Shown: one piece after another, positions 8,660-63,916 of the stretch
Layout of the letters: every line of letters starts with the position of its first letter
Position numbering within the stretch: position 1 is the stretch's first letter
Source of the DNA: Flavobacteriales bacterium
GTDB taxonomy: Bacteria; Bacteroidota; Bacteroidia; CAIKAF01
DNA length: 64,000 bases
Direction of reading: 5' to 3'
NCBI GenBank assembly: GCA_025451295.1
Contig: JANWKQ010000168.1
Location: 911 to 64,910, forward strand
Notes under the pieces: model-generated
The model's input: only the letters and a program-made list of their open reading frames with translations
Databases searched by the model: none
What the model was told of the DNA's origin: nothing
Position numbers and translations under genes: made by a program

Positions 8660-9396
8660 TTTAAAAGTATGTTTCCAGTTACGGAAATATCCAGGGTTAA
8701 AAACTCAAGTGGAAATACATTGATCGCCTGATTGGTGCCGATACTGATGTTAGCTTCAAATGTACCGGTCTTCTTCATATTGTAAATGATCTTTACATAG
8801 CCTGTTTCATTGGGTTTGATAACGCTTGGGGTTTCGGCTGTTAGGTATTGATTTGTTGAGGTCACTTCACCAAAGATGAGGTCTTTGGTACCTTCATTTG
8901 TCACTTCATACAAACGTATTCCCGAATCTTCATCTCCATACACACTGCCAAAATAAATGCGATTGTATTGGTATGATTGGATATAAGGCCCGGGGGGCGA
9001 CAAAACTTTTCCAAGAACTTTGACCGTATGTGATTTATAGATCGGATATCCTTCGCAATGCATGCTGTCGATCTCATTGGTAGTAATCGTGATCGTTTTA
9101 TTAATGGGGCCTATTCTTGTAATATTATATTTTACTTTTATTACACCAGATTTTCCGGGCGGAAATGGTTCCCTAGGCCAATATGGAACAAGACAGCCAC
9201 AGGATGATTTTACTTCGTGGAAAACCAGCGGTTCATTTCCTGTATTGGTAAATTCCAGATGACGAACACCCGAGTCAAGATCGGAATATATCGTCCCAAA
9301 ATCAATCACATCTTTAGCCGTGAATACCGGACCTGATTGTGCATTCAAGATAATTTGCACTACAATGGTCAGAAAGAATAATGCTGCATTTTTCAC
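8656..9396 (-). CDS. secreted DUF1573 protein
   Basis: DUF1573-type SCGC motif (KSSCGCLVPYW). Signal peptide. 4-nt ATGA overlap with the downstream paralog. Confidence 0.6.
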   Translation of the reverse strand: MKNAALFFLTIVVQIILNAQSGPVFTAKDVIDFGTIYSDLDSGVRHLEFTNTGNEPLVFHEVKSSCGCLVPYWPREPFPPGKSGVIKVKYNITRIGPINKTITITTNEIDSMHCEGYPIYKSHTVKVLGKVLSPPGPYIQSYQYNRIYFGSVYGDEDSGIRLYEVTNEGTKDLIFGEVTSTNQYLTAETPSVIKPNETGYVKIIYNMKKTGTFEANISIGTNQAINVFPLEFLTLDISVTGNILLK

Positions 9397-9506
9397 CTCG
9401 GTTTTTCTTTCGAAAATAGCGAATGTGAACTTTATCAGACTATTTTTTGGAACGGTTAACCCTTGTTTAACCTTCGTTGGGAAATTTTTAAGAAAAAACC
9501 TGCAAA

Positions 9507-9535
9507 AAAAGACCTGTTCATCGAACAGGTCTTTT
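9507..9535. terminator. bidirectional hairpin terminator 3' of rng
   Basis: agacctgttc…gaacaggtct stem with A/T runs on both sides. Confidence 0.5.
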
Positions 9536-9556
9536 TTATATACGTTATTGTATTAG

Positions 9557-11131: not shown

Positions 11132-11176
11132 GGTAGTATTTTTTATTAAACCAGTTCTTTGTTTATCAGAATGTGG

Positions 11177-11302
11177 CTTAGATTAATAATTTACGACAAT
11201 AAAAGGGGGTTATTTCTTCTTTTTATGTCTGTTTTTACGCAATCTCTTTTTTCTTTTATGCGTATTCATTTTAGCTCTTTTTCTTTTTTTACCACTTGGC
11301 AT
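11177..11302 (-). CDS. small, highly basic 41-aa protein (MPSGKKRKRAKMNTHKRKKRLRKNRHKKEEITPFYCRKLLI)
   Basis: Hand translation of a sub-threshold ORF lying between the TPR gene and the rng start. Extreme K/R content, like ribosome-associated small proteins. Not in the ORF track (<60 aa). Confidence 0.4.
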
Positions 11303-15807: not shown

Positions 15808-17079
15808 TTAAGATATTTTATCGAACCCGCAGAAGGCCTGCAGCACTTTGGGAATATTGATACCGTCACTTACCTGGTAGTTTTCAAGAATGCCAGCCAT
15901 GATCCTTGGAAGCGCTAAAGCACTGCCATTGAGGGTATGGGCTAGTTGTGGCTTCTCATTTCCGTCCCGGTATCGAAGCTTTAAACGGTTGGATTGAAAT
16001 GATTCAAAATTCGAAACGGAACTTACCTCAAGCCATCTTTGCTGTGCGGTACTATATACTTCAAAATCATAGGTCATAGCGGAGGTGAAGCCCATATCTC
16101 CACCACATAAGCGAAGGATCCGATAAGGAAGCTCCAGCTTATCCAATAGTGCTGCTACATGCTCCACCATTTCTTCCAGAGCGGGATAGCTTTTTTCTGG
16201 ATGCTGGATCTGAACGATCTCCACCTTATCAAATTGATGAAGCCTGTTAAGTCCTCGAACATCCTTACCATAAGAACCTGCTTCTCTCCTGAAACAGGGC
16301 GTATAGCCCGTTAACTTAATGGGCAGATCCTCTGCTTTTACAATTTCATCTCGGAATAAATTGGTCAGTGGAACCTCAGCCGTAGGAATTAAATAGAGAT
16401 TATCTACACCCACATGGTACATTTGTCCTTCCTTATCAGGAAGCTGACCGGTACCATATCCGCTGTCTTCATTTACCATATGCGGAACCTGGTGTTCCAC
16501 ATAACCCGCTTTTGTATTCTCATCAAGAAAAAAATTGATGAGTGCTCTTTGAAGCTTGGCGGCTTTTCCAATATAAACTGGAAAACCTGCACCGGTAATT
16601 TTTACCCCTAGTTCAAAATTGATGAGGTTATATTTTGTGGTGAGTTCCCAATGGGGAAGATTGTTATTCCCAAGTTCGGGGATCTTTCCGGATTGACGTA
16701 CCTCCTGGTTATCCTCTGCGCCTTTTCCCTCTGGTACTAGTGAGTAGGGAGCATTTGGGATGGTGTATAAATGTTGAAGGAGTTGTTGTTCGGCTTCGGC
16801 CTGAGCTACCTCGAGTTGTTTAATATTTTCTTTAATGGAAGTTACTTTCGCTTTGGCAGCTTCGGCTTCTTCTTTTTTTCCTGACTGCATAAGAGATCCA
16901 ATCATTTTAGATGCAGTATTGGCTTCAGCTAAAAGTTGATCGGATTGTTGCTGGGCCTTACGGCGGGCTTCATCGAGTTCCAATGCCTTTGTTACTGCCT
17001 CTTCCGCATTGATGTTCCTCTTTTTCAACCGGCTGATCGCCTCCTCCTTGTGATCCTTTAAATATTGTATCTGCAACAT
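15808..17079 (-). CDS. serS: seryl-tRNA synthetase
   Basis: N-terminal coiled coil plus class II aaRS core. 423 aa. Confidence 0.95.
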   Translation of the reverse strand: MLQIQYLKDHKEEAISRLKKRNINAEEAVTKALELDEARRKAQQQSDQLLAEANTASKMIGSLMQSGKKEEAEAAKAKVTSIKENIKQLEVAQAEAEQQLLQHLYTIPNAPYSLVPEGKGAEDNQEVRQSGKIPELGNNNLPHWELTTKYNLINFELGVKITGAGFPVYIGKAAKLQRALINFFLDENTKAGYVEHQVPHMVNEDSGYGTGQLPDKEGQMYHVGVDNLYLIPTAEVPLTNLFRDEIVKAEDLPIKLTGYTPCFRREAGSYGKDVRGLNRLHQFDKVEIVQIQHPEKSYPALEEMVEHVAALLDKLELPYRILRLCGGDMGFTSAMTYDFEVYSTAQQRWLEVSSVSNFESFQSNRLKLRYRDGNEKPQLAHTLNGSALALPRIMAGILENYQVSDGINIPKVLQAFCGFDKIS

Positions 17080-17397
17080 AAAGCCTTCAGAATTTGTTGG
17101 CGAAAATAGGAAAGGAATACGGATTTTTTAGAGAATTCCGGTTTTTTAAGGAGTTTTTCTATGCAATAATTATGTAATATACTGGCATCTAAAATATTGA
17201 TAATTAAAAAATTAACAAACGGAGATAAGCTGTCAACATGTAATGGATTTGAAAGAGGTTGAACTATGGGGTGTAGGGGGGCGTATATTTGGTTATAGAA
17301 ATTGATTTCAACACCAGTTGAATAAAAATAAAAATCTGACGCGTTCTTTTTTCATATAATAGTTAAGTGGTAAATAGGCAAGATTTGCCGTAGGTGT

Positions 17398-24531: not shown

Positions 24532-24621
24532 GAATTCGATTTGTTTGGGCGGCTTTTCCCGCTATCCGCTATATCTTTTGCTGAGCAAAAGGATGCCGCT
24601 CCTATCGCGGCCGCTGGCGTC
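24523..24621 (+). repeat. copy B (short form) of the dispersed intergenic repeat family
   Basis: Motif 1 (cgctatatcttttgctg) is directly fused to motif 2 (caaaaggatgccgct). Bounded by a perfect 8-bp inverted repeat (gacgccag…ctggcgtc). Lies between convergent genes. Confidence 0.5.
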
Positions 24622-28453: not shown

Positions 28454-29728
28454 ATGCATTTCGAATTTTCCGAAGAATTTGCGGTAAGCCAGGATCAATA
28501 CGATACACTTGCAGCTTACAGGAACCGGTTTCACTTTCCATTGATCCATGGGAAGAAGGCGATCTATTTTACCGGTAATTCCTTAGGACTTCAGCCTGAC
28601 AAAGCAGAGGAATATATTTTACAGGAAATGGAGGATTGGAAAAAATTTGGAGTGGAAGGACATTTCCAGGCGAAAAATCCATGGTTCAGTTATCATGAAC
28701 CTTTTGCAAAATTATTGGCACCCATTGTTGGAGCCAAGGAATCTGAAGTAGTTGCGATGGGATCGCTTACCAATAATTTACATTTGCTGATGGTATCTTT
28801 TTATCGTCCTACATCTACCCGTTATAAAATTCTGAGTGAGCAAAAAGCATTTCCTTCTGATCTGTATGCATTGGATAGTCAGGCCCGGTTTCATGGCTTC
28901 GATCCAAAGGATGCGGTGGTGGAAATTGGTCCGAGGGAGGGTGAAACGTATATCCGGAATGATGATGTGATCGCCAAAATACAGGAGCTTGGAGATAGTC
29001 TGGCGCTTGTAATGATGGGAGGAGTCAATTTTTACACTGGTCAACTTTTTGACATGGGAAAAATCACAGAGGTTGGCCATTCAAATGGTGCGGTGGTGGG
29101 TTTTGACCTGGCGCATGCAGCCGGAAATGTATCCTTACAATTAAATGCATGGAAAGTTGATTTCGCTGCATGGTGCAGTTATAAATATTTAAATAGTGGT
29201 CCGGGTAGCGTAGCTGGAATTTATGTTTATGAAAAACATCATACAGATGGATCATTGCCCCGTTTAAATGGATGGTGGGGAAATAAGGCTGATTCCAGAT
29301 TTAAAATGGAAAGATCGTTTCGTGCTTTTGAAACGGCAGAAGCATGGCAACTTTCGAATGCACCGGTTTTTTCGATGGCGATCCACCGAGCTTCACTTGA
29401 AATATTTAATGAGGCGGGCATGGATGCGTTGGTGGAGAAATCAAGAAAACTGTCAGGTTATACACATACCGTAATAGAAAAAATAAATGCGGATGCAGGT
29501 GAAGAACTCATCCAGGTGATTACACCTACGGATCAGCATGAACGTGGTTGTCAGGTTTCGATGGTGATGAAAAAAAACGGACGCATGGTTTTTGATGCCT
29601 TGTTAAAAAACGGGATCTTAACCGATTGGCGGGAACCGGATGTGATCCGGATTGCACCGGTACCACTTTATAATTCTTTTAAAGATGTATTTGATTTTTA
29701 TTCAACCCTTCGAAAAATATTATTATGA
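28454..29728 (+). CDS. kynU: kynureninase
   Basis: PLP-lysine motif WCSYKYLNSGPG. Class V aminotransferase fold. Confidence 0.85.
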   Translation: MHFEFSEEFAVSQDQYDTLAAYRNRFHFPLIHGKKAIYFTGNSLGLQPDKAEEYILQEMEDWKKFGVEGHFQAKNPWFSYHEPFAKLLAPIVGAKESEVVAMGSLTNNLHLLMVSFYRPTSTRYKILSEQKAFPSDLYALDSQARFHGFDPKDAVVEIGPREGETYIRNDDVIAKIQELGDSLALVMMGGVNFYTGQLFDMGKITEVGHSNGAVVGFDLAHAAGNVSLQLNAWKVDFAAWCSYKYLNSGPGSVAGIYVYEKHHTDGSLPRLNGWWGNKADSRFKMERSFRAFETAEAWQLSNAPVFSMAIHRASLEIFNEAGMDALVEKSRKLSGYTHTVIEKINADAGEELIQVITPTDQHERGCQVSMVMKKNGRMVFDALLKNGILTDWREPDVIRIAPVPLYNSFKDVFDFYSTLRKILL

Positions 29729-37462: not shown

Positions 37463-38251
37463 TTATTTTAGCATGATACAGGAGGCAAATCTTCCCGTCT
37501 TGTTTTTAAAATAACGGGCTGAATAAAAAGTCTCATGATTTTTAAAAGTGCAAAGGCCTGAGATCTCAATATTATTTTCCGGGACACCGTGGTTGATCAA
37601 CCAGGTTTTGTTGGCCAGCCAAAGATCCACATGTGCTTTATCACCGTGGTAATTGGAAATAAGATCCGAAGAATTCGCAAATGCATTTTTAACTGCTTCG
37701 ATCACTTCCGGACCCACTTCATAGTTTTCAGCACAAATGGAAGGACCGATCCCTGCAAGAATATTTTCCGGTTGTGAATTGAATTCTGTTTTCAACGCAG
37801 ATACTACTTTATCTACAATCCCATTTACAGTTCCTTTCCAGCCTGCATGGATCGAAGCAACCACTTTTTCTTTTTTATCAAACAAGAGAATGGGTACACA
37901 ATCTGCACCCAAAGCGGCAATGGCCATATTTTCTTCAGCAGTGATCAATGCATCGTTGTTCTCACGGGTATCGCGAAAGTTTTTTTCGGTAATAATTTTA
38001 TAATTGGTAGAATGGGTTTGTTTTTGAAAAACCAGTCTTTCAAAAGGTACTCCCATAAATCCGGCTAATCTTCTGCGGTTCTCCTCCACGTAGTTTAAAT
38101 GATCTTCCACCCCATAACCCAGATTCAACGAATCGGCATATCCTTCGGATATTCCACCTTTCCGGGTGGAGATAGCGTGTCGGATGCTGCTTTGATCTAA
38201 TAAGTTCTCAAATTGAAATACTTCCAGATGGGTTTCTTTGTTTAATTTCAT
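37463..38251 (-). CDS. pgeF: peptidoglycan editing factor PgeF (YfiH/DUF152, laccase-domain protein)
   Basis: Conserved His/Cys residues and family length. Confidence 0.8.
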   Translation of the reverse strand: MKLNKETHLEVFQFENLLDQSSIRHAISTRKGGISEGYADSLNLGYGVEDHLNYVEENRRRLAGFMGVPFERLVFQKQTHSTNYKIITEKNFRDTRENNDALITAEENMAIAALGADCVPILLFDKKEKVVASIHAGWKGTVNGIVDKVVSALKTEFNSQPENILAGIGPSICAENYEVGPEVIEAVKNAFANSSDLISNYHGDKAHVDLWLANKTWLINHGVPENNIEISGLCTFKNHETFYSARYFKNKTGRFASCIMLK

Positions 38252-38937
38252 TCTGCTTCTTTCAATAGTTTTTCCACCACCTGTCTTACGCCTTCGCTGG
38301 CTTTCATTTCGTAGGTTTCCATTTTTTGTATTCCACTTACTTCAGGAATTTTTCGGTCAATAATGATCTTTCTTTTTTCCGCTGGAGCATAGGTTAGGAT
38401 CCCGGCAGCCGGATAAACCTGGAGACTGGTTCCTACCACCATAATGATCTCAGCATTCACAACCTCTTTTAGTGCAACGGACATCATCGGCACATCTTCC
38501 CCAAACCAAACGATATGTGGTCTAAGCTGACTTCCTTTACCACACTTGTCACCTAACTTGATGTCCTCTTTCCAATCGTACACCAGAGATTCATCCAACG
38601 TACTTCTCACTTTCAACAGTTCACCATGTAAATGAATAATGTTTTTTGAGCCGGCTCTTTCATGAAGATCATCTACGTTTTGAGTAACGATCACTACCTC
38701 ATATTTCGCTTCGAGATTTACGAGGAGTTTGTGGGCATCATTGGGTTCTACTTCACGTAATTGTTTTCTTCGTAAGTTGTAAAACTCAAGCACCAACTCT
38801 TTGTTCTTATGCCAGCCTTGTGGTGATGCCACTTCCATAATATCATGCCCTTCCCATAAACCACCGGCATCCCGAAATGTTTTAATCCCGCTTTCTTCAC
38901 TAATACCCGCTCCGGTTAATACAACAATTTTTTTCAT
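38248..38937 (-). CDS. cobB: NAD-dependent protein deacylase (Sir2 family)
   Basis: GAGIS…G…FR Sir2 motif. Zn-ribbon cysteines. Confidence 0.85.
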   Translation of the reverse strand: MKKIVVLTGAGISEESGIKTFRDAGGLWEGHDIMEVASPQGWHKNKELVLEFYNLRRKQLREVEPNDAHKLLVNLEAKYEVVIVTQNVDDLHERAGSKNIIHLHGELLKVRSTLDESLVYDWKEDIKLGDKCGKGSQLRPHIVWFGEDVPMMSVALKEVVNAEIIMVVGTSLQVYPAAGILTYAPAEKRKIIIDRKIPEVSGIQKMETYEMKASEGVRQVVEKLLKEAE

Positions 38938-38984
38938 GGATCAACTTTGATGGATAAAGTTACAAATAATCTCCAATGGCATAG

Positions 38985-39128
38985 GGATAGAAGCGGCATC
39001 CTTTTTATTGCTTCCCAAAACCATTTTCGATGCAGCAGTACAGACGTGCCCTGGCACGTCTCCTCAAATTGACGAAACTACGCGAACAGCAATAAAAAGA
39101 TATAGCGAATAGCCCGTTGCGCCATAGC
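38985..39128 (-). repeat. copy D of the dispersed intergenic repeat family (inverted orientation)
   Basis: On the minus strand it contains motif 1 (ttcgctatatctttttattgctg), the palindrome (agacgtgccagggcacgtct) and motif 2 (gcaataaaaaggatgccgcttc), in the same order and spacing as copy A. Confidence 0.5.
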
Positions 39129-40857: not shown

Positions 40858-42201
40858 TTAGGAATGGGATAATAGGTGTAGGATCTTTTCTTCCACTTCC
40901 ATGCTATTCCATTTTTCGGCCAGATTGGGCATTTTCATTACCTGGGCCATGATGGCGTTTTGATAATCCCCTTTTTGCAAAGCATACTCATATGAAAAAT
41001 CACTGAAGGTAACCATCGAGTACAGAGGTACCCATTTATCTGGATGCTTTTGATAGAACCAGCCTTCTATTTTTTTCTGAAGTAAAAAATCAGGGTCAGC
41101 AGTCAAATCACGCATTTCAATAAAATTTCGCAAGGCAAGTTCCGCTACCGAATCTGCATTGGGTTTTCTTGATTTTCCAAAGGCTTCGAAAAAATTCTCA
41201 AACTTATTGAGATGTTCATCCAACATCTGATCGAAAACAAAACAATCTTCAAATCCAGCATTCATGCCTTGTCCGTAAAAGGGAACCACGGCATGAGCTG
41301 CATCTCCCATAAGAACTACAGAATCCTTATAATGCCATGGATAGCAGCGAATGGTTTGAAGCGCAGAGGTTGGATGATTTAAAAATTGCTCCATGAAATC
41401 CGGAAGGTGAGGGATCACATCAGGGAAATAATATTGAAAGAACCCTAGAATATCCCGTTCTGTTTTTAAAGACTGAAAAGAAACTTTCCCTTCCCATCCT
41501 AAAAATAATGTACAGGTAAAACTTCCATCAATATTTGGCAGGGCGATCAGCATAAAATCTTCCCTTGGCCATATATGTAAGGTGTTTGGATCCATTTTAT
41601 GGGATCCGTCTTCATTCGCTTCGATATGAAGTTCTTTGTATCCATGATCGATATAGTCCTGCGAATAATCAAAACGTTCGTTGAACATGAGGCGATGTCG
41701 CACAGCGGAAAAAGCCCCATCTGTGCCGATGAGATGTTCGTAAACATGCGACATTTCTTCACCAGTTATATCATTTTTGAAGTACGCAGTTTTGTTTTCC
41801 AGATCGATGTTTGCACAACGGGCATCAAAATGCATGGTCGTCTGTTCGTATTTGTCGGCGATTTGCAATAAGGTTCTGTTGAGTTCTCCCCTCGATACGC
41901 TATAGATCGCTTCACCTTCTTTACCATAAGGTTGAAAGGTTAAATTCCCATGTATATCATGCATGGTCCTTTTATACATCGGGATCGCAATTTCACGGAT
42001 GGTTTCTTCAGCACCAACTTTCCGCAGGGCTTTCCATGCCCGGTTACTCACAGCCAGATTGATGGATCTTCCCTGATAAATATCAGCGTTCCGGATATCC
42101 GGTCTTCTTTCAAACAGATCAACCCTGAATCCGCGTTGTGCTAAAAAAACAGATTGTAAGGCTCCAACCAGTCCCCCGCCAACAATGGTAAAATTTTTCA
42201 T
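40858..42201 (-). CDS. kmo: kynurenine 3-monooxygenase (FAD-dependent)
   Basis: N-terminal FAD-binding GxGxxG (IVGGGLVGAL). KMO-length flavoprotein monooxygenase. The track start at 42276 is probably an over-extension. Confidence 0.8.
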   Translation of the reverse strand: MKNFTIVGGGLVGALQSVFLAQRGFRVDLFERRPDIRNADIYQGRSINLAVSNRAWKALRKVGAEETIREIAIPMYKRTMHDIHGNLTFQPYGKEGEAIYSVSRGELNRTLLQIADKYEQTTMHFDARCANIDLENKTAYFKNDITGEEMSHVYEHLIGTDGAFSAVRHRLMFNERFDYSQDYIDHGYKELHIEANEDGSHKMDPNTLHIWPREDFMLIALPNIDGSFTCTLFLGWEGKVSFQSLKTERDILGFFQYYFPDVIPHLPDFMEQFLNHPTSALQTIRCYPWHYKDSVVLMGDAAHAVVPFYGQGMNAGFEDCFVFDQMLDEHLNKFENFFEAFGKSRKPNADSVAELALRNFIEMRDLTADPDFLLQKKIEGWFYQKHPDKWVPLYSMVTFSDFSYEYALQKGDYQNAIMAQVMKMPNLAEKWNSMEVEEKILHLLSHS

Positions 42202-42297
42202 TTTTGTTCTTTCTGTTACAAATATAACAAGTCCGTAAACAAAAAAGCATCCTGACCAATGGTCAGGATGCCCCACTTTCAGAGTAGGTTGGTGTAC

Positions 42298-43728
42298 TTA
42301 CTCAGTGATCGCAAAAAACTCTACATCCGCGTAGCCATGGCTTCCGCTTGAAATAGGTTGTAGCGTATAGTTAATGTTTGATACAGAAAAAGTAGTCGAA
42401 GTAACATAACCATCCGCCGTAACCAATGTGGGTGCAACCACAGAAGAAACTGATACCGAAAGATCAGATAGGGTCCCGTTGGCAATATACCATTTTCCGT
42501 CGATCTGAGTATATTCCGACCAGGTTTCTCCCAATAGGATCAGTTGGCCATTGTACGAAAGAATTGCTTCTACTCGTTCTCCACATTTTTCATCCGACAC
42601 TTCACCCGTAAAGAAATTGTATTGGCTGATCAGATTACCATTTAAATCCATCTTAAGAAAACATCCGTCTCCCCATTGGCCGGTATCATATCCATCGAAG
42701 CTTCCTTTCCCACCAACATAGATCGTATTATTAATCACCCGTAAGCAGGAAATATTATTCCGGTCGTTGTTGAGACCCTGGAATTTTTTTGACCAAACCA
42801 GGTTACCACTATTATCTATCTTTAGAATTCCCATATAAGTGGATACACCTCTCAGATCAGCTCCAAGATAAAGATCGCCGGTGGCGTCTACTTCCATATC
42901 CGTTATACGGCCAGCCCATCCTACATCTACCTTTTTACACCAGTCCAGAGTGGCTCCACCAGAAGATAACTTCATCACAAATCCTGAATTATTACTTCCT
43001 GCCCATCCTGCGATATAAATATTATTTCCATCCGGTGAACGAACCACATAACCGCGATCATTATACCCAGGTGAAGGATCAATACCAACCGTTGTATTGG
43101 GATCAACAGTTCCATTGGAAGCATCCATAATAAGTAGAAAGACCATTCCTTCTTCAGAAGTTGTACCTGCACCTGTGCTTCCGGTAACAAAAACTTTTCC
43201 ACCGGCAACATCCAGGGAATAGGCCTTGGCACTGCTACTCGATACCGCCGAGCTGGTTGCCTTCCAGAATTTTTGCCAGATCACGGTTCCAGATCCACTC
43301 ATTTTGGTAATGAATACCTCGTTGTAACCTTGACTGGATGCTCCTGTGATGTATACATCTCCACTGGCATCCACCGCTACACATCTTGATCCACCACCAC
43401 CCTGCGAAATTCCATTTTCTCCCGGTGAAGGCATCCAATCTTGTGCTCCTCCATCAAAGGACTTTGACCACGAAACAGTTTTGGTATTGAAATTAACTTT
43501 AGTGAGAAAGATATTTCCCTGGTAACCATCAGGAAGTGTAGAACCGGTGAAATAAATATTTCCACTGTTGTCAATCACAGCTCCGGAAAAATCATCATCA
43601 TCTGGTGATCCCCAACATCCATTCCAGTCGGTTGTGAAATCTGCTTTGGTATGGTTACCTCCAAAAGGATCGCAGGAGGAAAATAAAATAGGGGCTAGAA
43701 AGCCCAACAAATGAATAATTTTTTTCAT
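42298..43728 (-). CDS. lipoprotein with SBBP-type beta-propeller repeats
   Basis: Lipobox LFSSC. Repeated D(A/N)(S/T)G(N/D)(I/L)Y(I/L)(T/A)G motifs. Confidence 0.55.
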   Translation of the reverse strand: MKKIIHLLGFLAPILFSSCDPFGGNHTKADFTTDWNGCWGSPDDDDFSGAVIDNSGNIYFTGSTLPDGYQGNIFLTKVNFNTKTVSWSKSFDGGAQDWMPSPGENGISQGGGGSRCVAVDASGDVYITGASSQGYNEVFITKMSGSGTVIWQKFWKATSSAVSSSSAKAYSLDVAGGKVFVTGSTGAGTTSEEGMVFLLIMDASNGTVDPNTTVGIDPSPGYNDRGYVVRSPDGNNIYIAGWAGSNNSGFVMKLSSGGATLDWCKKVDVGWAGRITDMEVDATGDLYLGADLRGVSTYMGILKIDNSGNLVWSKKFQGLNNDRNNISCLRVINNTIYVGGKGSFDGYDTGQWGDGCFLKMDLNGNLISQYNFFTGEVSDEKCGERVEAILSYNGQLILLGETWSEYTQIDGKWYIANGTLSDLSVSVSSVVAPTLVTADGYVTSTTFSVSNINYTLQPISSGSHGYADVEFFAITE

Positions 43729-43837
43729 AGTTGATTTTTTATGGAATAAATATACCCCACGAAGCCCTGTTAGGATGGACAATATTGGCACAATGCACAC
43801 AAAAAAGGGTGAATGACAGAAATACGAAGGTGAGATT

Positions 43838-44644
43838 TTAGACGGCTACATTGTATTCTCTCAATGCATCATTCAGGGATGTTTTGGTATCTGTACTTTC
43901 TTTTCTTTTTCCAATGATCAATGCACAGGGAACCTGAAAATCTCCGGCATTGAATTTTTTAGTATAACTTCCTGGGATCACCACGGATCTTTCTGGAACA
44001 TAACCTTTATACTCGATGGGCTCATTGCCACTTACGTCAATAATTTTTGTTGACATCGTGAGTACCACATTAGCGCCAAGTACGGCTTCTTTTCCAACCC
44101 TTACACCTTCAACAACAATACAACGTGAACCAATAAAAGCACTATCCTCGATGATCACAGGTGCAGCCTGAACGGGTTCCAGTACACCACCCAATCCAAC
44201 TCCGCCACTCAGGTGAACATGTTTTCCAACCTGTGCACAACTACCAACGGTGGCCCAGGTATCAACCATGGTGCCGGCATCTACATATGCCCCAATATTT
44301 ACAAATGATGGCATACAAATAACTCCGCTTGAAACGTATGATCCATAACGGATCACAGAACCGGGAACGGTTCGGATGCCAGATTTTTCCATGCCCGTTT
44401 TTAAAGGAATCTTGTCAAAATATTGTTCGGGACCCTCCTGCATGATCTTCATTGGCATAATAGGGAAATAGAGGATCACTGCCTTTTTTATCCATTCATT
44501 TACCTGCCATCCGTTAGCAACAGGTTCGGCCACGCGGATCTCGCCTTTATCCAAAAGTTCAATAACCTCTTTGATGGTTTTTTGTATGGAACTTTCTTTC
44601 AAAAGTTCACGGTTATTCCAGGCTTGTTCGATGATGTCTTTCAT
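43838..44644 (-). CDS. dapD: 2,3,4,5-tetrahydropyridine-2,6-dicarboxylate N-succinyltransferase
   Basis: Hexapeptide-repeat left-handed beta-helix. DapD-type N-terminus. Confidence 0.85.
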   Translation of the reverse strand: MKDIIEQAWNNRELLKESSIQKTIKEVIELLDKGEIRVAEPVANGWQVNEWIKKAVILYFPIMPMKIMQEGPEQYFDKIPLKTGMEKSGIRTVPGSVIRYGSYVSSGVICMPSFVNIGAYVDAGTMVDTWATVGSCAQVGKHVHLSGGVGLGGVLEPVQAAPVIIEDSAFIGSRCIVVEGVRVGKEAVLGANVVLTMSTKIIDVSGNEPIEYKGYVPERSVVIPGSYTKKFNAGDFQVPCALIIGKRKESTDTKTSLNDALREYNVAV

Positions 44645-46238: not shown

Positions 46239-46670
46239 TCAAAAAGCGGAAACCCATTTTTTATTTGCTTCATCATACCTAAAGAAATTATCCACGGTTT
46301 TAAAGGCGTTTACCACGGCCTCCTTTTTGTTTTCGGGTGTTAGCTTTGGCTGATACATGTTCTGATTGTTCATTTTGGCAGATGCGACCGTATAACCAAC
46401 CGTGCTAACACCGGAACTTACTACCGCTCCACCGATGCCTCCAAATATTCCTCCAAATACACGGGCAATTCCCCGAATGAGGCTGTATATGATCCCCTGC
46501 TTTACGCTCGATTTAACTGCCGTTTGTACAATCTGGTTTTGATCCATGGTTACTTGTCCAAATGCCTGTATCGGGTCTTTGCCATCAACCTGGAAGGTAC
46601 AACGTACCATATGGGTTTCCCAGGTTTCCTGTTTAAGGATTGGTTGAATGTTTTCATACGTAATTTCCAT
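46239..46670 (-). CDS. hypothetical protein with glycine-zipper TM segment
   Basis: GGIFGGIGGAVVSSGVS motif. Start chosen at the internal Met to avoid overlapping the upstream gene. Confidence 0.4.
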   Translation of the reverse strand: MEITYENIQPILKQETWETHMVRCTFQVDGKDPIQAFGQVTMDQNQIVQTAVKSSVKQGIIYSLIRGIARVFGGIFGGIGGAVVSSGVSTVGYTVASAKMNNQNMYQPKLTPENKKEAVVNAFKTVDNFFRYDEANKKWVSAF

Positions 46671-46699
46671 AAGTATATATTTTAAATGTGAACAGTTTT

Positions 46700-48286
46700 T
46701 TATTTTTTGATACATTCCTCTGAGAACCATACAGAGCTATCATATTCTCCCCATCTTTGAAACATGGTAGAGGCATAACCTGATCCACCACTACTTGTAT
46801 TTTGTTGTGAGAAAAGAATATCAATTTCAAAACATAAATTGGTCTTGGTGTTTTGAATGATACCCTTTCCATTGATGGTTCTGCTAAGGATCACGCCCCA
46901 GAAATTTCGTTGATAGGTCCAGTCGTTATCAAGAACAACCACTTTCAGCACTTTTTCATCAGCCCTTTTACTGTTGTCGATCATGCTAAATGCATCTGGA
47001 ACAAGTTGTGTATGGTTATTTACCCAGGAGAACTTGGGACATAACTTTTTCAATAAATTGGTTTTATCCGCTTCGGTTACGTTGAGTTCAAATTCACCAG
47101 TAGCAATTTCCTTTACTTCGCTGATGCTGGCATTCCATGTATTTAGATAATCAATGCTCATCACTGCTTTGAACTTATGTTTTCCGGCGCTTGCTTTTAC
47201 CAAAGCTTTAGCGAAATTGTAAACTGCGGCCATATTGGTCTCGGTTACCTCCATCGGAGCTACACCAATTTCCCATGAAGTTCTTGATTTGGCAGTTTCG
47301 TCCAGAAGGTCAGTTGATAACGTCGTTATATATTTTCCATCGAGATAATAAGCGACATCGTAACTCGTAATCGTTCCTGCAACACCAAGATCGGCTGACA
47401 TGTTGTGAATAGACTGTGGCAAATAAACCCTTGAATAGATCCCTTCAGACAATCCACCAAAAGAAGTTTTAAATGAAGAGGAAGCAGCATTGTCTCCGAT
47501 CACCGCATTCGAGAAGACGATCTTATTCAGATTTTGTTTATGAGCATCTCCTTTAATTCCATTGTCACCCGTCTTTTTGAATTTTTCATTGATCACCTCA
47601 CCAAAATTGGTGAGCATGTCTTTTCTGTAAGTATCGATCTGATCGTTCTCAACCTTTAAAGAAAACTCACCGGAGCTGAATGTTTTGCCCGATTTAAATA
47701 CCTGTTTACTAAGTTCACTGTCCCATTCTTCTTTTCCGGATTCCAACGAGACTTTCATCTTATAGGTTCCTTCAGAAATTTTACCACTTAAAGTGATAAA
47801 CATGTCCCTGAATAAACCCTCAATAAAATAGGTCATGATCGACATTTTACGATCAGTTAAGGTGGCTTCCGTTAATCCTTTGATATCTTTAAAAGAAGCA
47901 GAAGTAGCCAATATGTTCAGATCGAGACTATAAGTTTCGGCAAAATAAATGGCGAGTACTTCATCTTCTGCTTTAAAGTCCTGATATGCTAATGTAAGTC
48001 CATTACAGGTAACCGATGCACGAATATGTTCGTCTGACGGAATTTGGCCGGTTGGTTTTTCGGTAAACATAAACTGCACATATACAGGCTCGCCCAGCGA
48101 AAAACTGGTCACAGGATTCGTGCCCGCCATTTCATTGTAGAATTTGGCTGTATTACTTGAAGGGGCTTCATAAACAGCATCAGAAGTATTTTGGGCAAAC
48201 AGGCTGCTACCAATAATACAAGCAAACAGGATTGAAGTCGATCGTAATTGTGCGATTCTTTTCATAGTGTTGATTGATTTTTTCAT
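46700..48286 (-). CDS. hypothetical secreted protein (528 aa)
   Basis: Signal peptide. No recognisable domain. Confidence 0.5.
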   Translation of the reverse strand: MKKSINTMKRIAQLRSTSILFACIIGSSLFAQNTSDAVYEAPSSNTAKFYNEMAGTNPVTSFSLGEPVYVQFMFTEKPTGQIPSDEHIRASVTCNGLTLAYQDFKAEDEVLAIYFAETYSLDLNILATSASFKDIKGLTEATLTDRKMSIMTYFIEGLFRDMFITLSGKISEGTYKMKVSLESGKEEWDSELSKQVFKSGKTFSSGEFSLKVENDQIDTYRKDMLTNFGEVINEKFKKTGDNGIKGDAHKQNLNKIVFSNAVIGDNAASSSFKTSFGGLSEGIYSRVYLPQSIHNMSADLGVAGTITSYDVAYYLDGKYITTLSTDLLDETAKSRTSWEIGVAPMEVTETNMAAVYNFAKALVKASAGKHKFKAVMSIDYLNTWNASISEVKEIATGEFELNVTEADKTNLLKKLCPKFSWVNNHTQLVPDAFSMIDNSKRADEKVLKVVVLDNDWTYQRNFWGVILSRTINGKGIIQNTKTNLCFEIDILFSQQNTSSGGSGYASTMFQRWGEYDSSVWFSEECIKK

Positions 48287-48565
48287 GCTTTCAATTTTTA
48301 TTATGTGGTAAAACTAACGTGTGATTCCATGAATAGTCCGTGATATATGGTTGTTGGTAGGTTTGAATAGGGTAAATGGCCGCTTTTCAAAGGTGAATGA
48401 ATTTGGCTACTTCTGTGGTAATTTTCATGTGACTCAGAACGGTTTTATCCGTCGCCTTAAAAAAGATGCCATTCATCATTTTATTCATACCATTCACCCT
48501 TATTCGAAAAAGCTTCATGAACAATGATGGTAATATTGTTTCTATAAACTTTAAAAGTCTAGCTC

Positions 48566-48931
48566 ATGAAAAAAGTATTCGTATTTCTTTTTGTTTTTTC
48601 TGCCTTTCAAATGATGGGGTTTTCCCAGATCAAAGGAGACAAGGTGGAGGTCTTGTGGAATAGTAAATGGTATCCTTCAACCGTACTTGAAGTGAAAGGT
48701 TCTACATGGAAGATCCATTATGATGGATATGGTGACACATTTGATGAATGGGTTGACCAGGATAGAATAAGAACAACTTATAAAAAAGGTGATAAAATCC
48801 AGGTTTCGTCGAGTTCAGTCTGGTACAAGGCCACAATACTTGAGGTGAGTGGAAGTAAATACAAGATCCATTATGATGGTTGGGCGGATAGTTGGGATGA
48901 ATGGGTTACCACGGACAGAATGAAAAAATAA
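48566..48931 (+). CDS. secreted protein with two tandem Tudor-like domains
   Basis: Signal peptide. Two repeats GDK(V/I).V.W….WY.(S/A)T(V/I)LEV.GS.(W/Y)KIHYDG(Y/W).D..DEWV..DR. Confidence 0.5.
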   Translation: MKKVFVFLFVFSAFQMMGFSQIKGDKVEVLWNSKWYPSTVLEVKGSTWKIHYDGYGDTFDEWVDQDRIRTTYKKGDKIQVSSSSVWYKATILEVSGSKYKIHYDGWADSWDEWVTTDRMKK

Positions 48932-55306: not shown

Positions 55307-55693
55307 AGATACGATTAATGTTCAAAGTTCAAAGCGCTCAATGTCCAAAACTTCAGCCTTTTCAAGGTTTTTTGGTGTCTTTATGCCGGGCCAACCCGGT
55401 TTTGCAGGTTTCTCAAAATCGAATGAACATTGCGATTGGCGCTGGTTTTCTGGGAGGGCCTACAACTGCTGCAAGGCCAACTCCTGCCGTCTTTCGCTTG
55501 AGCCCTTGTTCTGCATACCCCACAGTTCTATGTGCCGGATGATATTTCGGACCTTTACTCATATGCCTTAAAAACTGTGAGGCCAGCAAAACAAGGGACT
55601 ATCGCTCCACCCGGCTCTCCGCAAGGGTATTTTTGAGGATTTCAAATACCATTTTAAAAACCCTTAGCGTTATATATGTAAACATCACGGCGT

Positions 55694-56628: not shown

Positions 56629-57765
56629 TTACTCCTTGTCCTCGATAAACGGCTCGTCTTGTGCTTTAAGTAATTCTCCACTTAAAGTTTTCAGCGGATT
56701 TTTCGTAAGCTCTTTATTGTTGGTCCGCGTCAAATAAAGGTCTGCTGCCAGATACAATGCATCTCTGAAAGAGGTTACATCCGCCTTATCTTTTCCTACC
56801 AGATCAAAACCTGGTCCATGATCCGGTGATGTTCGAATGAAATTCAATCCTGCGGTATAATTTACACCACCAATACCGGCGAGTGTTTTAAATGGTACCA
56901 ATCCCTGGTCATGATACATGGCCAGAATGCCATCATAATTTTTAAAATTACCTGATGCAAAAAAACCATCCGCCGCAAACGGACCCATTACCAACATGTT
57001 TTTTTCTTTCAACGTCTCAATGGCAGGTATAATAATTTCTGCTTCTTCATTTCCGAATTTTCCATGATCCCCGGCATGCGGATTTAAGGCAAGAACGGCA
57101 ATCTTAGGTTTTGAAATAGAGAAATCCCGTACCAATGTTTCTTTTAAAAGTTGTGCTTTTTTTATAATATTTTATTTGGTGAGAGATGCCGTGATCTTAC
57201 TAATACCAACATGTCCGGTAACCAATGCCACCCTCAGATTTTCATGTACCATGAGCATCAATGATTCTTTTCCGGCTTTATCGGCAAAATATTCTGTATG
57301 CCCTGCAAAAGAAAAACCTACTTTTTCAAGATTTGATTTATCGATCGGAGCTGTTACCAATCCATGAATTTTTCCGGCCACCAGATCCGCTGTGCCAGCT
57401 TCGAGACTCATCACCGCATATTTTGCACCGGTTTCATTGGAAACTCCGGGATCTATTTTGGCTTCTTCCTGCCATACATTGATGAGATTTACTTTTCCAG
57501 CCTGTGCTTCTTCAACTGTTCTAATCGCATGGTAAACGAAATTTTCGGCAGTACACATTTTTTTATAAAAAGAAAATACACGTGCTGAGCCATAAATAAC
57601 AGGAGTAAAAGTTTCAAGAATATCCGGCTCCTCAAAAGTTTTCAGGATCAATTCAGGACCAATTCCATTAAAATCCCCCAGGGTAATTCCAATCTTTATT
57701 TTATTCTGCCCTGTTGCCTTATTCATCATACCAATGAGCTTTTTACTTGAGTTTATTGAGTACAA
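56629..57765 (-). pseudogene. pdxA: 4-hydroxythreonine-4-phosphate dehydrogenase PdxA interrupted by a single in-frame TAA
   Basis: ORFs 57172..57765 (N-terminal half) and 56629..57135 (C-terminal half, with LNPHAGD) are in the same frame. They are separated by TAA at 57172..57174. Read-through gives …SLTK*NIIKKAQLLKETLVRDF…, a plausible PdxA linker. Confidence 0.7.
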
Positions 57766-59692: not shown

Positions 59693-59704
59693 ACAGGGCC
59701 TTTA

Positions 59705-59800
59705 AGACCCAACCAGGAAGAAGCGGCCCGAAACCGGAGGCGCCTGCAAGGCGGCCCGAAGGGCGGCACCCGGAGGGTGAGGAAAGGCCGCCCAAATACG
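59705..59800. other. GC-rich intergenic element with degenerate ~25-nt direct repeats (gcggcccgaa…)
   Basis: aagcggcccgaaaccggaggcgcc, then aaggcggcccgaagggcggcaccc, then complementary ggccgccc. It stands out sharply in an AT-rich context. Confidence 0.3.
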
Positions 59801-59932
59801 CTGTAAATCTCCAAGTATTATTATACCTTTGTTACCTATTATACTGGTTATATGGCTAAAGAAACATTGGCTCCTGCAGTAAAATCGAAAACCTAATTTT
59901 CGAAAGAACAATACCTTAAATGGTATGAGGAT

Positions 59933-60880
59933 ATGCTCATGTGGAGAAAAATTGAAGAGAAAGCAGGGCATTTATATATTCAACAAAAAATTCGTGGATT
60001 TTGTCATCTCTATGTTGGACAGGAAGCAGTAGTTGCTGGATCAGCCTCAGCTATTCGTCCTGATGATAATATGATTACGGGTTATAGAAATCACGTTCAT
60101 CCATTGTCAAAAGGGATGCATCCGAAATACATGATGGCTGAATTATTTGGAAAATCAACAGGGTGTTCCAAAGGGAATGGTGGTTCGATGCACATGTTCA
60201 GCAAGGAATTAAGATTTTTTGGAGGACATGGTATTGTAGGTGGACAAATTCCGCTGGGTGCAGGTCTTGCATTCGGAGATAAATTTGCAGGGAACGATCG
60301 CATCACACTTTGTTATATGGGTGATGGTGCTGTAAGACAAGGTGCCTTGCATGAAACATTTAATCTCGCCATGTTGTGGAAACTACCTGTGATATTTATT
60401 ATCGAAAATAATATGTATGCGATGGGAACTTCCGTTGAAAGAAGTTCGAATGTACATGATCTGTATAAGCTGGGAGCTGCTTATGAAATGCCAAGTTTCC
60501 AGGTGGATGGAATGAAACCAGAAACCATGCATGATGCCGTAGTTGAAGCAGCAACGAGAGCCAGAAAAGGAGACGGACCTACTTTATTGGAGGTAAAAAC
60601 ATATCGCTATAAAGGACATTCAATGAGTGATCCTCAAAAATACCGAAGTAAAGAAGAGGTAGAAGATTATAAGGAGGAAGATCCGATCTTATGGACCTTA
60701 AGTGTGATCCAGAAAAATAAATGGGCAACAGAGAAAGAAATTGATGCGATTGAGGAAAGGGTGAATGCATTGGTGGAAGAGAGTGTGAAGTTTGCAGAAG
60801 AATCTCCATTTCCGGATGCATCGGAATTGTACAAACAAGTTTATATTGAAGAAAATTATCCGTTTATACGGGAAGATTAA
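59933..60880 (+). CDS. pdhA: pyruvate dehydrogenase E1 alpha subunit (TPP-dependent); in-frame TAA upstream truncates the conserved N-terminus
   Basis: TPP-binding motifs (GDGA…N). A 14-codon ORF (59852, MAKETLAPAVKSKT) is followed by TAA at 59894 and then by in-frame FSKEQYLKWYEDM, a motif conserved in PdhA N-termini. Confidence 0.8.
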   Translation: MLMWRKIEEKAGHLYIQQKIRGFCHLYVGQEAVVAGSASAIRPDDNMITGYRNHVHPLSKGMHPKYMMAELFGKSTGCSKGNGGSMHMFSKELRFFGGHGIVGGQIPLGAGLAFGDKFAGNDRITLCYMGDGAVRQGALHETFNLAMLWKLPVIFIIENNMYAMGTSVERSSNVHDLYKLGAAYEMPSFQVDGMKPETMHDAVVEAATRARKGDGPTLLEVKTYRYKGHSMSDPQKYRSKEEVEDYKEEDPILWTLSVIQKNKWATEKEIDAIEERVNALVEESVKFAEESPFPDASELYKQVYIEENYPFIRED

Positions 60881-60902: not shown

Positions 60903-62147
60903 ATGGCAGAAATCGTTAGAATGCCGAAGCTGAGTGATACAATGACAGAAGGAACTGTCGCAGCCTGGCATAAAAAAGTAGGAGATAAAGTAAAAACCGG
61001 CGATCTGTTAGCCGAAATTGAAACCGACAAGGCCACAATGGAATTTGAAAGTTTCCAGGACGGCGTTTTGCTGTATGTCGGTATTGAAAAAGGTGGCAGT
61101 GCTCCTATTGATTCTATTCTGGCTATTTTAGGGAAAGAAGGCGAAGACTATAAAGCTTTACTTGAAGGAGAAAAATCAAAACCAGCTGCTAACGAGGAAA
61201 AAACGGAAAAGAAGGAAGAAAAGGTGGAAGCATCTTCTTCAGGCAAAACGGAAACTACAACTATTGTAGAAACTGCCATCGCTACTACTGCCATAGCCGC
61301 AACGTCAAATGGCAATGGTCGGATCAAGGCCTCTCCTTTGGCAAAAGCATTGGCAAAAAATAAGGGTGTTAATCTTTCAATGGTAAAAGGAAGTGGTGAC
61401 GGAGGAAGGATCATTAAAAAAGATATTGAGAATTTTAAAGGAGGTGGAAGTGCACTTACTGCCACTGAATCATTTACGGAAGTGGCGGTTTCACAAATGC
61501 GCAAAACCATTGCCCGCCGGTTAACTGAAAGCAAAAATGGTGCACCTCATTTTTACCTTACCATGTCGATCGATATGGACAATGCCATTGCATCGAGAAA
61601 AGCTTATAACGAACTTACCGGGGAAAAGATCTCCTTCAATGATATCGTGATCAAGGCTGTTGCGATGTCGTTAAGAAAAAATCCAAATGTAAATTCTTCA
61701 TGGCTGGGTGATAAGATCAGGTATAATCAGCATATTCATATCGGAGTAGCTGTTGCTATTCCAGATGGTCTCGTGGTTCCGGTTGTGAAATTTGCAGATC
61801 ATAAATCTTTTTCGGAAATATCTACGGAGGTAAGGGCATTGGCTGCTAAAGCCAAGGATAAAAAGATCCAGCCTGCAGATATGGAAGGAAATACGTTTTC
61901 CATATCGAACTTAGGAATGTTCGGTATTGATGAATTTACGGCGATTATTAACCCACCTGATGCCTGCATATTGGCGGTTGGTGGAATCAGTGAGGAACCG
62001 GTGGTAAAGAATGGAGCTGTTGTTCCGGGCAATATCATGAAGGTAACGTTAAGTTGTGATCATCGTGTGGTTGATGGTGCAACCGGTGCAGAATTCTTAC
62101 GTACATTGAAGTTGATGTTAGAAAATCCAGTGTTGATGTTTGTATAA
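60903..62147 (+). CDS. dihydrolipoyllysine-residue acetyltransferase (2-oxo acid dehydrogenase E2)
   Basis: Lipoyl domain (ETDKATME). Ala/Thr-rich linker. E3-binding domain. Catalytic DHRVVDGA. Confidence 0.85.
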   Translation: MAEIVRMPKLSDTMTEGTVAAWHKKVGDKVKTGDLLAEIETDKATMEFESFQDGVLLYVGIEKGGSAPIDSILAILGKEGEDYKALLEGEKSKPAANEEKTEKKEEKVEASSSGKTETTTIVETAIATTAIAATSNGNGRIKASPLAKALAKNKGVNLSMVKGSGDGGRIIKKDIENFKGGGSALTATESFTEVAVSQMRKTIARRLTESKNGAPHFYLTMSIDMDNAIASRKAYNELTGEKISFNDIVIKAVAMSLRKNPNVNSSWLGDKIRYNQHIHIGVAVAIPDGLVVPVVKFADHKSFSEISTEVRALAAKAKDKKIQPADMEGNTFSISNLGMFGIDEFTAIINPPDACILAVGGISEEPVVKNGAVVPGNIMKVTLSCDHRVVDGATGAEFLRTLKLMLENPVLMFV

Positions 62148-62471: not shown

Positions 62472-62960
62472 TTGTTGAGTTTTATGAGGAAAACATGGAT
62501 TGTTGTTTTAATTATTTCTGTCTCCAGTTTTTTTGTGGCCTGTGGTGTTAAATCAGCTTTTAAAAATGAGAATAACGCTTTCGGAAACCCCAAATCAGCT
62601 GCTACAAAATATTTGAAATGTCTGTTGAAAAAAGACTATGACAAAGCGAAGACATTGGCTACTAAAGAAACCGCATCTAATCTGGATATGATGAAAGTGC
62701 TGGGAACGGATTTTGGATTGACAGAAGTAAAAGACGTTAAATGTTTTGTAAATGGGAATACTGCTACCTGTACCTTTTGCTGTACCAAGGATACTTCTTT
62801 TAAGGAGCTGAAGATGATCAATGAGGGTGGCAAATGGCTGGCGCACCAACCCAAAGAAATGCCTCCTATAGATACTACGGCTACTGAGGAGTATAATGAT
62901 GAATATAGTACTCCAAAAACCCCGGAGGATATGGAAAAAAGACGTATGCAAAACCGTTAA
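62472..62960 (+). CDS. lipoprotein, paralog 1 of 3 (NTF2-like small lipoprotein family)
   Basis: Lipobox (FVACG). Conserved ...NAFGNPKS.ATKYL.CL.KKDYDKAKTLAT.ET….ATCTFCCTKDTSFKELKM..EGGKWLAHQPKE. Confidence 0.6.
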   Translation: MLSFMRKTWIVVLIISVSSFFVACGVKSAFKNENNAFGNPKSAATKYLKCLLKKDYDKAKTLATKETASNLDMMKVLGTDFGLTEVKDVKCFVNGNTATCTFCCTKDTSFKELKMINEGGKWLAHQPKEMPPIDTTATEEYNDEYSTPKTPEDMEKRRMQNR

Positions 62961-62972
62961 AATAAAAACAGC

Positions 62973-63446
62973 ATGAAAAAAAGACTTTCAATTATTTCCG
63001 TTGGCCTTATCCTGGTTATCTTGGTTGGATGTGGTGTAAAATTCTCCTTCAACAATAATGAGAATTCCTTTGGGAATCCCAAATCGGTAGCTACCAAATA
63101 TCTAACCTGCCTGATGAAGAAAGACTATGATAAAGCCAAAACGTTGGCTACCCCAGAAACTGCTCAAAACCTTAGTATGATGCAATCCATGGGTGCAGAT
63201 TTTGGACTCACAGTGGTGAAGGATGTAAAATGTATTGTAAGCGGAAATGAAGCCACCTGTACTTTTTGCTGTACAAAAGATACTTCGTTTAAAGAACTTA
63301 AAATGAGAAAAGAAGGAGGAAAATGGTTGGCACATCAACCGAAGGAAACGCCGCCTATTGATAACGAAGATAATAATAGCAATACCGATTACCTTACACC
63401 CAAATCGGCCGAGGACATGGAAAAGAATCGCCAGAAAAACCGTTAA
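62973..63446 (+). CDS. lipoprotein, paralog 2 of 3
   Basis: About 70% identical to its neighbours. Lipobox LVGCG. Confidence 0.6.
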   Translation: MKKRLSIISVGLILVILVGCGVKFSFNNNENSFGNPKSVATKYLTCLMKKDYDKAKTLATPETAQNLSMMQSMGADFGLTVVKDVKCIVSGNEATCTFCCTKDTSFKELKMRKEGGKWLAHQPKETPPIDNEDNNSNTDYLTPKSAEDMEKNRQKNR

Positions 63447-63457
63447 AATAAAACTGT

Positions 63458-63916
63458 ATGAAAAAAAGACTTTCCATTATTTCGATCAGCCTTATCCTGG
63501 TTGTATTGATTGGATGTGGTATGAAATTCTCATTCAACAATAATGAGAATTCTTTTGGGAATCCCAAATCGGTAGCTACAAAATATTTAACCTACCTGAT
63601 GCAGAAGAATTATGACAAGGCTAAAACGATTGCTACCAAAGAAACAGCAGCCAATCTTGATATGATGAATTCCCTGGGGACCGATTTTGGGATCACGGTG
63701 GTAAAGAATGTGGTTTGCAAAGTAAAAAACGATGAAGCTACCTGTACTTTTTGTTGTACGAAGGATACTTCCTTTAAAGAACTTAAGATGAGAAAAGAGG
63801 GAGGTCAATGGCTTGCACATCAACCCAAAGAAACACCACCCTCAAATGACGATAACAATAATTATTCCACACCGAGATCAGCTGAGGAGATTGAAAGAGG
63901 TCGTCAGAACCGTTAA
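63458..63916 (+). CDS. lipoprotein, paralog 3 of 3
   Basis: About 70% identical to its neighbours. Lipobox LIGCG. Confidence 0.6.
   Translation: MKKRLSIISISLILVVLIGCGMKFSFNNNENSFGNPKSVATKYLTYLMQKNYDKAKTIATKETAANLDMMNSLGTDFGITVVKNVVCKVKNDEATCTFCCTKDTSFKELKMRKEGGQWLAHQPKETPPSNDDNNNYSTPRSAEEIERGRQNR

Follow-up and report, generated by a model that had tools for sequence, protein, structure and literature searches.

An in-frame ochre codon near the start of pdhA in a Flavobacteriales genome is very probably an ordinary point substitution

When a conserved housekeeping gene carries a stop codon close to its start, is the gene broken, is the stop decoded, or does translation simply begin farther downstream? 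This question is raised by pdhA, which encodes the E1-alpha subunit of pyruvate dehydrogenase, in DNA of an uncultured Flavobacteriales lineage. We analyzed a 64-kb stretch of this DNA (hereafter the window, to which all positions refer unless stated otherwise). A first-pass annotation had held that an in-frame TAA cuts off the N terminus of PdhA, that a similar TAA interrupts pdxA nearby, and that the pair hints at a shared cause, with read-through of TAA among the candidates.

Results

An ochre codon interrupts the pdhA reading frame

Direct reading of the sequence and its in-frame translation revealed that the pdhA frame on the forward strand is opened by an ATG at positions 59852–59854, and the 14 codons that precede the stop (59852–59893) read MAKETLAPAVKSKT. 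The following codon, number 15 of the gene, is an ochre TAA at 59894–59896, after which the frame continues as FSKEQYLKWYEDM... until it ends at the TAA at 60878–60880. Between the ochre codon and the first downstream ATG at 59933, where the sequence MLMWRK begins, lie 12 stranded codons (59897–59932, encoding FSKEQYLKWYED), and ATG, GTG, TTG, ATT, ATA, and CTG are all absent from them, leaving no possible start codon in this segment. The longest conventional ORF, the one that a gene caller would be expected to pick, spans positions 59933–60880 on the forward strand and encodes 315 amino acids, including the GDG...ENN thiamine diphosphate motif. When codon 15 is restored, pdhA comprises 342 codons, 27 of which lie upstream of the 315-amino acid ORF, as the first-pass annotation had stated.

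Approximately 20 nt upstream of the ATG at 59852 is the promoter-like sequence TACCTTTG (59824–59831, forward strand), which fits the −7 promoter motif of Bacteroidota (TAnnTTTG) and is thus a putative promoter. This sequence resides within the block TATTATTATA(A/C)CTTTGTTACCTATTATA, which is the conserved part of the pdhA upstream region in four related loci (L001–L004, described below). Farther upstream, in the interval that separates pdhA from the cytidine deaminase gene, we noted about 100 nt (59700–59800) with a GC content of 66%, compared with 40% for the genome. This spacer lacks DNA-level conservation in relatives, and blastn alignments break there. We considered whether it might be a structured RNA or a repeat and set this idea aside, because the spacer has no Rfam match, its fold z-score is −1.0, and it is present as a single copy in the window. 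Note also that the open frame upstream of pdhA in some relatives extends far beyond the true start (positions 10001–10205 of L004 and 2817–3015 of L005), and that one public gene call of 412 amino acids (P0004) is over-extended by approximately 70 residues of non-homologous sequence.

The Pfam family PF00676 (E1_dh) is matched over model positions 2–299 of 300 (E = 1.4e-94; 317 bits versus a cut-off of 22), beginning at restored residue 27, one residue before the ATG at 59933. The thiamine diphosphate motif GDGAVRQGALHETFNLAMLWKLPVIFIIENN and the loop YRYKGHSMSD are present in the translation, and the GDG-(x)n-NN and YRYxGHSxSD columns are invariant in an alignment of 18 homologues. The window pdhA belongs to the alpha2beta2-type E1-alpha proteins and, apart from its stop, is a normal Flavobacteriales gene. 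It is followed after 22 nt by an intact gene for the E2 dihydrolipoamide acyltransferase (60903–62147, forward strand) with Biotin_lipoyl, E3_binding, and 2-oxoacid_dh domains and with orthologues in L002–L006; this gene order is common to the relatives. Beyond E2, at 62472–63916 on the forward strand, we observed three very similar tandem paralogues of 152–162 amino acids with lipoprotein-like N termini (MKKRLSIIS...VGCG).

Relatives carry a sense codon at the position of the stop

We compared the window with seven Flavobacteriales loci, four of them retrieved by exact-protein look-up (L001–L004), two from species-representative genomes (L005 and L006), and one from a 485-kb metagenome contig (L085). 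The frame that begins at the conserved pdhA start is interrupted at codon 15 in the window and uninterrupted in all seven relatives, whose PdhA proteins are 342–347 amino acids long, begin with MAKET, and are 89–93% identical to that of the window. Their first residues (MAKETLAP, MAKETMAP, or MAKETLNP) are found at the same place as those of the window gene, with the eight residues MAKETLAP identical in L001, L002, and L085. At the position of the TAA, the codon is AAA in two loci (L001 and L002), AAG in four (L003, L005, L006, and L085), and ACC in L004, such that six of the seven relatives have Lys and the remaining one has Thr. The flanks of this codon in L085 (AAATCGAAAACC before it and TTTTCGAAAGAACAATACCT after it) match the window DNA for 12 bases upstream and 20 bases downstream of its AAG. 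Because the length of pdhA is equal to that in L001, L004, and L085, the lesion is a substitution rather than an indel.

A wider set of homologues gives the same picture. The best 120 homologues recovered in a search with the restored PdhA are all at least 331 amino acids long, and the block F-x-K-E-x-Y-L-K-W-Y is present in each of the 12 whose sequences were read. The Y-L-K-W-Y-E-x-M block, which the first-pass annotation had cited as Y-L-x-W-Y-E-x-M and as a conserved feature of E1-alpha N termini, is conserved in the 18 aligned homologues and aligns to human PDHA1. With its coordinates exact and the genes of the relatives uninterrupted, the earlier conclusion that a TAA cuts pdhA, with conserved coding sequence extending beyond the 5' end of the largest ORF, stands.

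The closest relatives are still some distance away. DNA identity to them is 73–78%, and the best genome match has 94% protein identity. We found no exact-protein matches for the 315-amino acid ORF, cytidine deaminase, E2, or ribosomal protein L32, and an exact 30-mer spanning the pdhA TAA, in which the mutated base was set to N, had no match in metagenome contigs. One of the relatives deserves a comment of its own: the contig of L006 (CAZUXM010000036.1) bears the title "uncultured Candidatus Competibacteraceae," which points to a family of gammaproteobacteria, yet it carries a Flavobacteriales-type pdxA-pepA-cdd-pdhA-E2 locus. Its PdhA is 93% identical to that of the window, and the record is probably a mis-binned contig or a mislabeled bin.

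A similar stop interrupts pdxA, and the rest of the window is intact

The companion lesion lies in pdxA, a gene of 366 codons at 56629–57729 on the reverse strand, in which an in-frame TAA at 57172–57174 separates halves matching positions 2–143 and 146–286 of the 286-position Pfam PdxA model. As the first-pass annotation had proposed, this stop is genuinely in frame, and each of the six relatives covering that position has Glu there. It would represent a mid-domain change from a Glu codon, GAA, to TAA, the same kind of lesion as that in pdhA, which is 2720 bases away. The pdxA locus should be annotated as one interrupted gene rather than as two ORFs.

We surveyed the remainder of the window by inspecting same-frame neighboring ORFs, overlapping pairs, and large gaps, and by comparing approximately 50 ORFs with Pfam or with orthologues; a few of these ORFs matched no Pfam family. 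About 55 other genes are intact, as judged by full domain coverage or full-length orthologues, and a tally of 18,194 codons in 50 gene models contains no further in-frame stops. We also found no insertion-sequence genes among the scanned ORFs and no convincing case in the window of a short ATG-headed fragment stopped upstream of another gene. Among the Pfam-matching ORFs at 2168–3282, 8656–11182, 15808–17351, 37463–38940, and 46239–48313, suspected frameshifts or truncations proved to be complete, separate genes, a verdict that excludes the ORFs at 17061–17351, 46242–46736, and 46703–48313 because no Pfam family matched them.

One further candidate for an interrupted gene, the same-frame pair at 40858–42297 and 42298–43845 joined by a TAA, was rejected because these are two genes, the second with its own start and an FAD-binding N terminus. 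An FAD monooxygenase with an N terminus resembling that of kynurenine 3-monooxygenase is encoded at 40858–42276 on the reverse strand, and a kynureninase-like gene is located at 28454–29728 on the forward strand; together they suggest a kynurenine pathway.

Several other features of the window were recorded during this survey. In the DUF1573 gene (8656–9552, reverse strand), 52 open codons precede the first ATG, GTG, or TTG, and the open frame reaches to within 2 nt of the stop codon of the RNase E/G gene. A spacer of approximately 370 nt (55320–55690) between yceD and an FGE-sulfatase-like gene has a local GC content of 50–55%, contains only small, implausible ORFs, and matches no Rfam family at gathering score. 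Two matches to the Flavo-1 RNA (RF01705; gathering score 42) are present at 24551–24616 on the reverse strand (50.2 bits) and at 38974–39123 on the forward strand (48.2 bits), the latter spanning 150 nt compared with 76 positions in the model and thus containing a large insertion. Finally, a 121-amino acid ORF at 48566–48931 on the forward strand has two matches to Agenet, Tudor-knot, MBT, and chromo-like domains (E about 1e-11). Eukaryotic chromatin readers are the best-known proteins with these folds.

Discussion

Both stops are best explained as undecoded point substitutions

We consider it very probable that the stops in pdhA and pdxA are plain point substitutions that are not decoded. For pdhA, the event would be a lineage-specific change of the Lys codon at position 15 to an ochre codon, either from AAA or, by two successive changes, from AAG. 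On the coding strands, the changes are A to T in pdhA and G to T in pdxA, and both are length-neutral. Other routes to an internal stop, namely transposon excision footprints, adenine mutagenesis of the diversity-generating retroelement (DGR) type, A-to-I editing, and translational bypass, were considered and rejected on the grounds that the substitutions are length-neutral and that homology runs unbroken through the stop.

How old are these lesions? The window PdhA is 89–93% identical to the proteins of its relatives, which are 88–93% identical among themselves, and it has private changes at three columns that are invariant in the others. For PdxA, identity to the relatives is 82–86%, compared with 80–93% among the relatives, and the neighboring genes behave alike. 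Frameshifts, additional stops, and accelerated divergence are absent from both genes. Because the two genes have diverged no faster than their neighbors, the lesions are either very recent or errors in the consensus sequence. Either purifying selection acted on pdhA and pdxA until very recently or the stops are not real.

Within this reading, we regard a very recent real mutation and a consensus error as about equally probable. With the codon usage of the window, 4.8% of single-base substitutions create a stop, so two stops imply approximately 40 substitutions per 64 kb; no indel was seen in any gene, which argues against a simple error model. Conversely, pdhA and pdxA are housekeeping genes, which argues against real mutation. 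Two nonsense codons in such genes are more than is predicted either for a good assembly or for a free-living genome under selection, and finding two at all among some 58 otherwise clean genes is mildly unusual.

The outcome matters mainly for annotation and metabolic inference. If the bases are real, then pyruvate dehydrogenase E1 and the PdxA step of vitamin B6 synthesis would just have been lost or weakened, and the predicted carbon metabolism of the organism and its dependence on others for B6 would change accordingly. If the bases are wrong, then the stops flag the quality of the record. The pdhA gene should be annotated as an internal-stop gene from the ATG at 59852 and not as a 315-amino acid coding sequence from 59933. 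The locus would be of general interest only in the unlikely event of read-through.

TAA probably retains its ordinary meaning in the window

Could the TAA codons nevertheless be decoded at some frequency, by an ochre suppressor tRNA, a context-dependent dual meaning, or leaky termination, such that full-length PdhA and PdxA are produced? This would account for the facts that both stops are TAA, that both occur in housekeeping genes, and that these genes are otherwise intact and have diverged at the pace of their neighbors, as if still expressed. We nevertheless judge it very unlikely, because the window gives TAA every appearance of a working terminator. The 58 ORFs of at least 100 amino acids end with TAA in 34 cases, TAG in 14, and TGA in 10, and the FabH, PlsX, M17 peptidase, cytidine deaminase, and PdhA proteins of relatives align to their last residue just before a TAA in the window. 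In-frame TAA codons number just two in approximately 18,200 codons, they replace different residues (Lys in one gene and Glu in the other), and neither is found in any of the seven relatives. Their contexts through the +4 base, TAAT and TAAA, are the two commonest among ordinary terminators in the window. The sole tRNA gene in the 64 kb is for tRNA-Phe; none with the anticodon UUA, and hence no suppressor, is encoded there, although one may lie elsewhere in the genome. These observations also weigh against the read-through that the first-pass annotation had suggested.

A further form of this idea, that the lineage occasionally decodes TAA and has entered an early stage of UAA reassignment, is in our view similarly improbable. 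A literature search returned only UGA reassignments for bacteria and no bacterial UAA reassignment.

The coincidence of two TAA codons calls for little special explanation. AAA (1108 occurrences) and GAA (947) rank first and second among the codons of the window, and 47% of all stop-creating substitutions would yield TAA, so the probability that both stops are TAA by chance is 0.22, which is unremarkable. By simple arithmetic, two sites placed at random in 64 kb would be no more than 2.72 kb apart with a probability of approximately 0.08. The earlier suggestion that two TAA codons within 3 kb hint at a shared cause therefore lacks statistical support.

The stranded codons belong to the protein

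It is likewise highly improbable that PdhA natively starts at residue 28, with the MLMWRK sequence encoded from the ATG at 59933, and that the upstream similarity is a non-coding remnant with nothing broken. Such a start is conceivable insofar as ATG codons exist at 59933 and 59939 and the 315-amino acid ORF holds the whole Pfam domain. However, the orthologues do not start at MLMWRK: the best 120 homologues are all at least 331 amino acids long, compared with 315 for this ORF, and the N-terminal block occurs in every one of the 12 read. Six residues encoded between the TAA and M28 are retained at positions where the 18-homologue alignment is nearly invariant (F16, K18, E19, Y21, and E26) or invariant (W24). 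Homology to human PDHA1 (1NI4) begins at query residue 14, and the 12 stranded codons align to PDHA1 residues 30–41. Moreover, the codons before the TAA still read as the conserved start, and the conserved promoter-like block directly precedes them. A remnant would be expected to decay, so the intact codons on both sides of the TAA indicate that this segment is not one.

A structural model is consistent with this conclusion. We used the AlphaFold model of P0001, a protein of the same length as the restored PdhA and 92% identical to it. In this model, residues 1–12 are predicted to be disordered and residues 18–43 to form a helix, with a mean pLDDT of 96 for residues 21–30. The 12 stranded codons would cover the first 10 residues of this helix. 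The TAA would therefore fall at the boundary between tail and core, and M28 would lie in the middle of the helix, an implausible place for a native start.

If the TAA is an undecoded substitution, as we favor, ribosomes that start at 59852 would release a 14-residue peptide, and no full-length E1-alpha would be made. The sole route to a product would then be restart or internal initiation at the ATG at 59933 or at 59939, located 36 and 42 nt past the stop, respectively. Translation initiation in Bacteroidia does not depend on Shine-Dalgarno sequences, and an A at position −3 favors it (PMC6847099). Both ATG codons lack this A in the window sequence. A restart product without residues 1–27 would be missing the disordered tail, the six conserved residues listed above, and 10 residues from the start of helix 1. 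The 315-amino acid ORF does hold the whole Pfam-defined domain, so residual function is possible, and on sequence grounds a product starting at M28 could have some activity. Nevertheless, despite an essentially whole E1_dh domain, such a product is probably weakened or inactive. Early termination in pdhA might also lower expression of the E2 gene downstream.

Highly improbable as well is the idea that both genes became pseudogenes long ago, as part of a reductive decay of the genome like that of a host-restricted symbiont. Two nonsense-bearing housekeeping genes within 2.7 kb lend it some appeal. However, both genes are free of the additional damage described above that age should bring, the other checked genes are intact and tightly packed, and the scanned ORFs are devoid of insertion-sequence genes.

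Comparison with known systems

Stop codons have been reassigned from UGA to Trp (code 4), from UGA to Gly (code 25), and, in some phages, from UAG to Gln (code 15). The window resembles these systems in that in-frame stops occupy conserved sense positions of housekeeping genes. It differs in that TAA stays the main terminator, the few cases involve two residues, and the relatives lack them; where TAA has become a sense codon, many TAAs would align to one amino acid, whereas here in-frame TAAs occur in two of approximately 58 genes. The release-factor genes prfA and prfB, which might be lost or altered under such a code, lie outside the window. The use of TAA as a terminator, the scarcity of in-frame cases, and their ordinary contexts together leave a changed meaning of TAA unsupported.

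Programmed recoding comprises the insertion of selenocysteine at UGA with a SECIS element, of pyrrolysine at UAG, and programmed read-through, and its sites are conserved and its signals specific. The shared feature is a stop within a functional frame. In contrast, the codon here is TAA, the relatives have a sense codon at its place (seven of seven for pdhA and six of six for pdxA), and the +4 contexts are not distinctive.

The arrangement also brings to mind termination-reinitiation or internal initiation, since a 14-codon upstream frame stops 36 nt short of an in-frame ATG. Because Bacteroidia do without reliance on Shine-Dalgarno sequences (PMC6847099), an internal AUG could be usable in principle. 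However, neither internal ATG of pdhA has the favorable A at −3 (PMC6847099), the shortened product would lack conserved residues, and nothing indicates that selection shaped this arrangement.

The closest likeness is to bacterial internal-stop pseudogenes and ochre mutations, a class flagged as "internal stop" by annotation pipelines, in which one stop disrupts a gene that has intact orthologues, both flanks remain conserved, and a gene caller reports the longer fragment. Nothing essential differs; the particulars of this case are that pdhA has no further decay and that two lesions occur within 2.7 kb. The gene is disrupted relative to intact orthologues, as a pseudogene is, and signs of relaxed selection are absent, so the lesion, if real, is recent. 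The interrupted pdhA is thus a member of the familiar class of internal-stop genes and is biologically ordinary.
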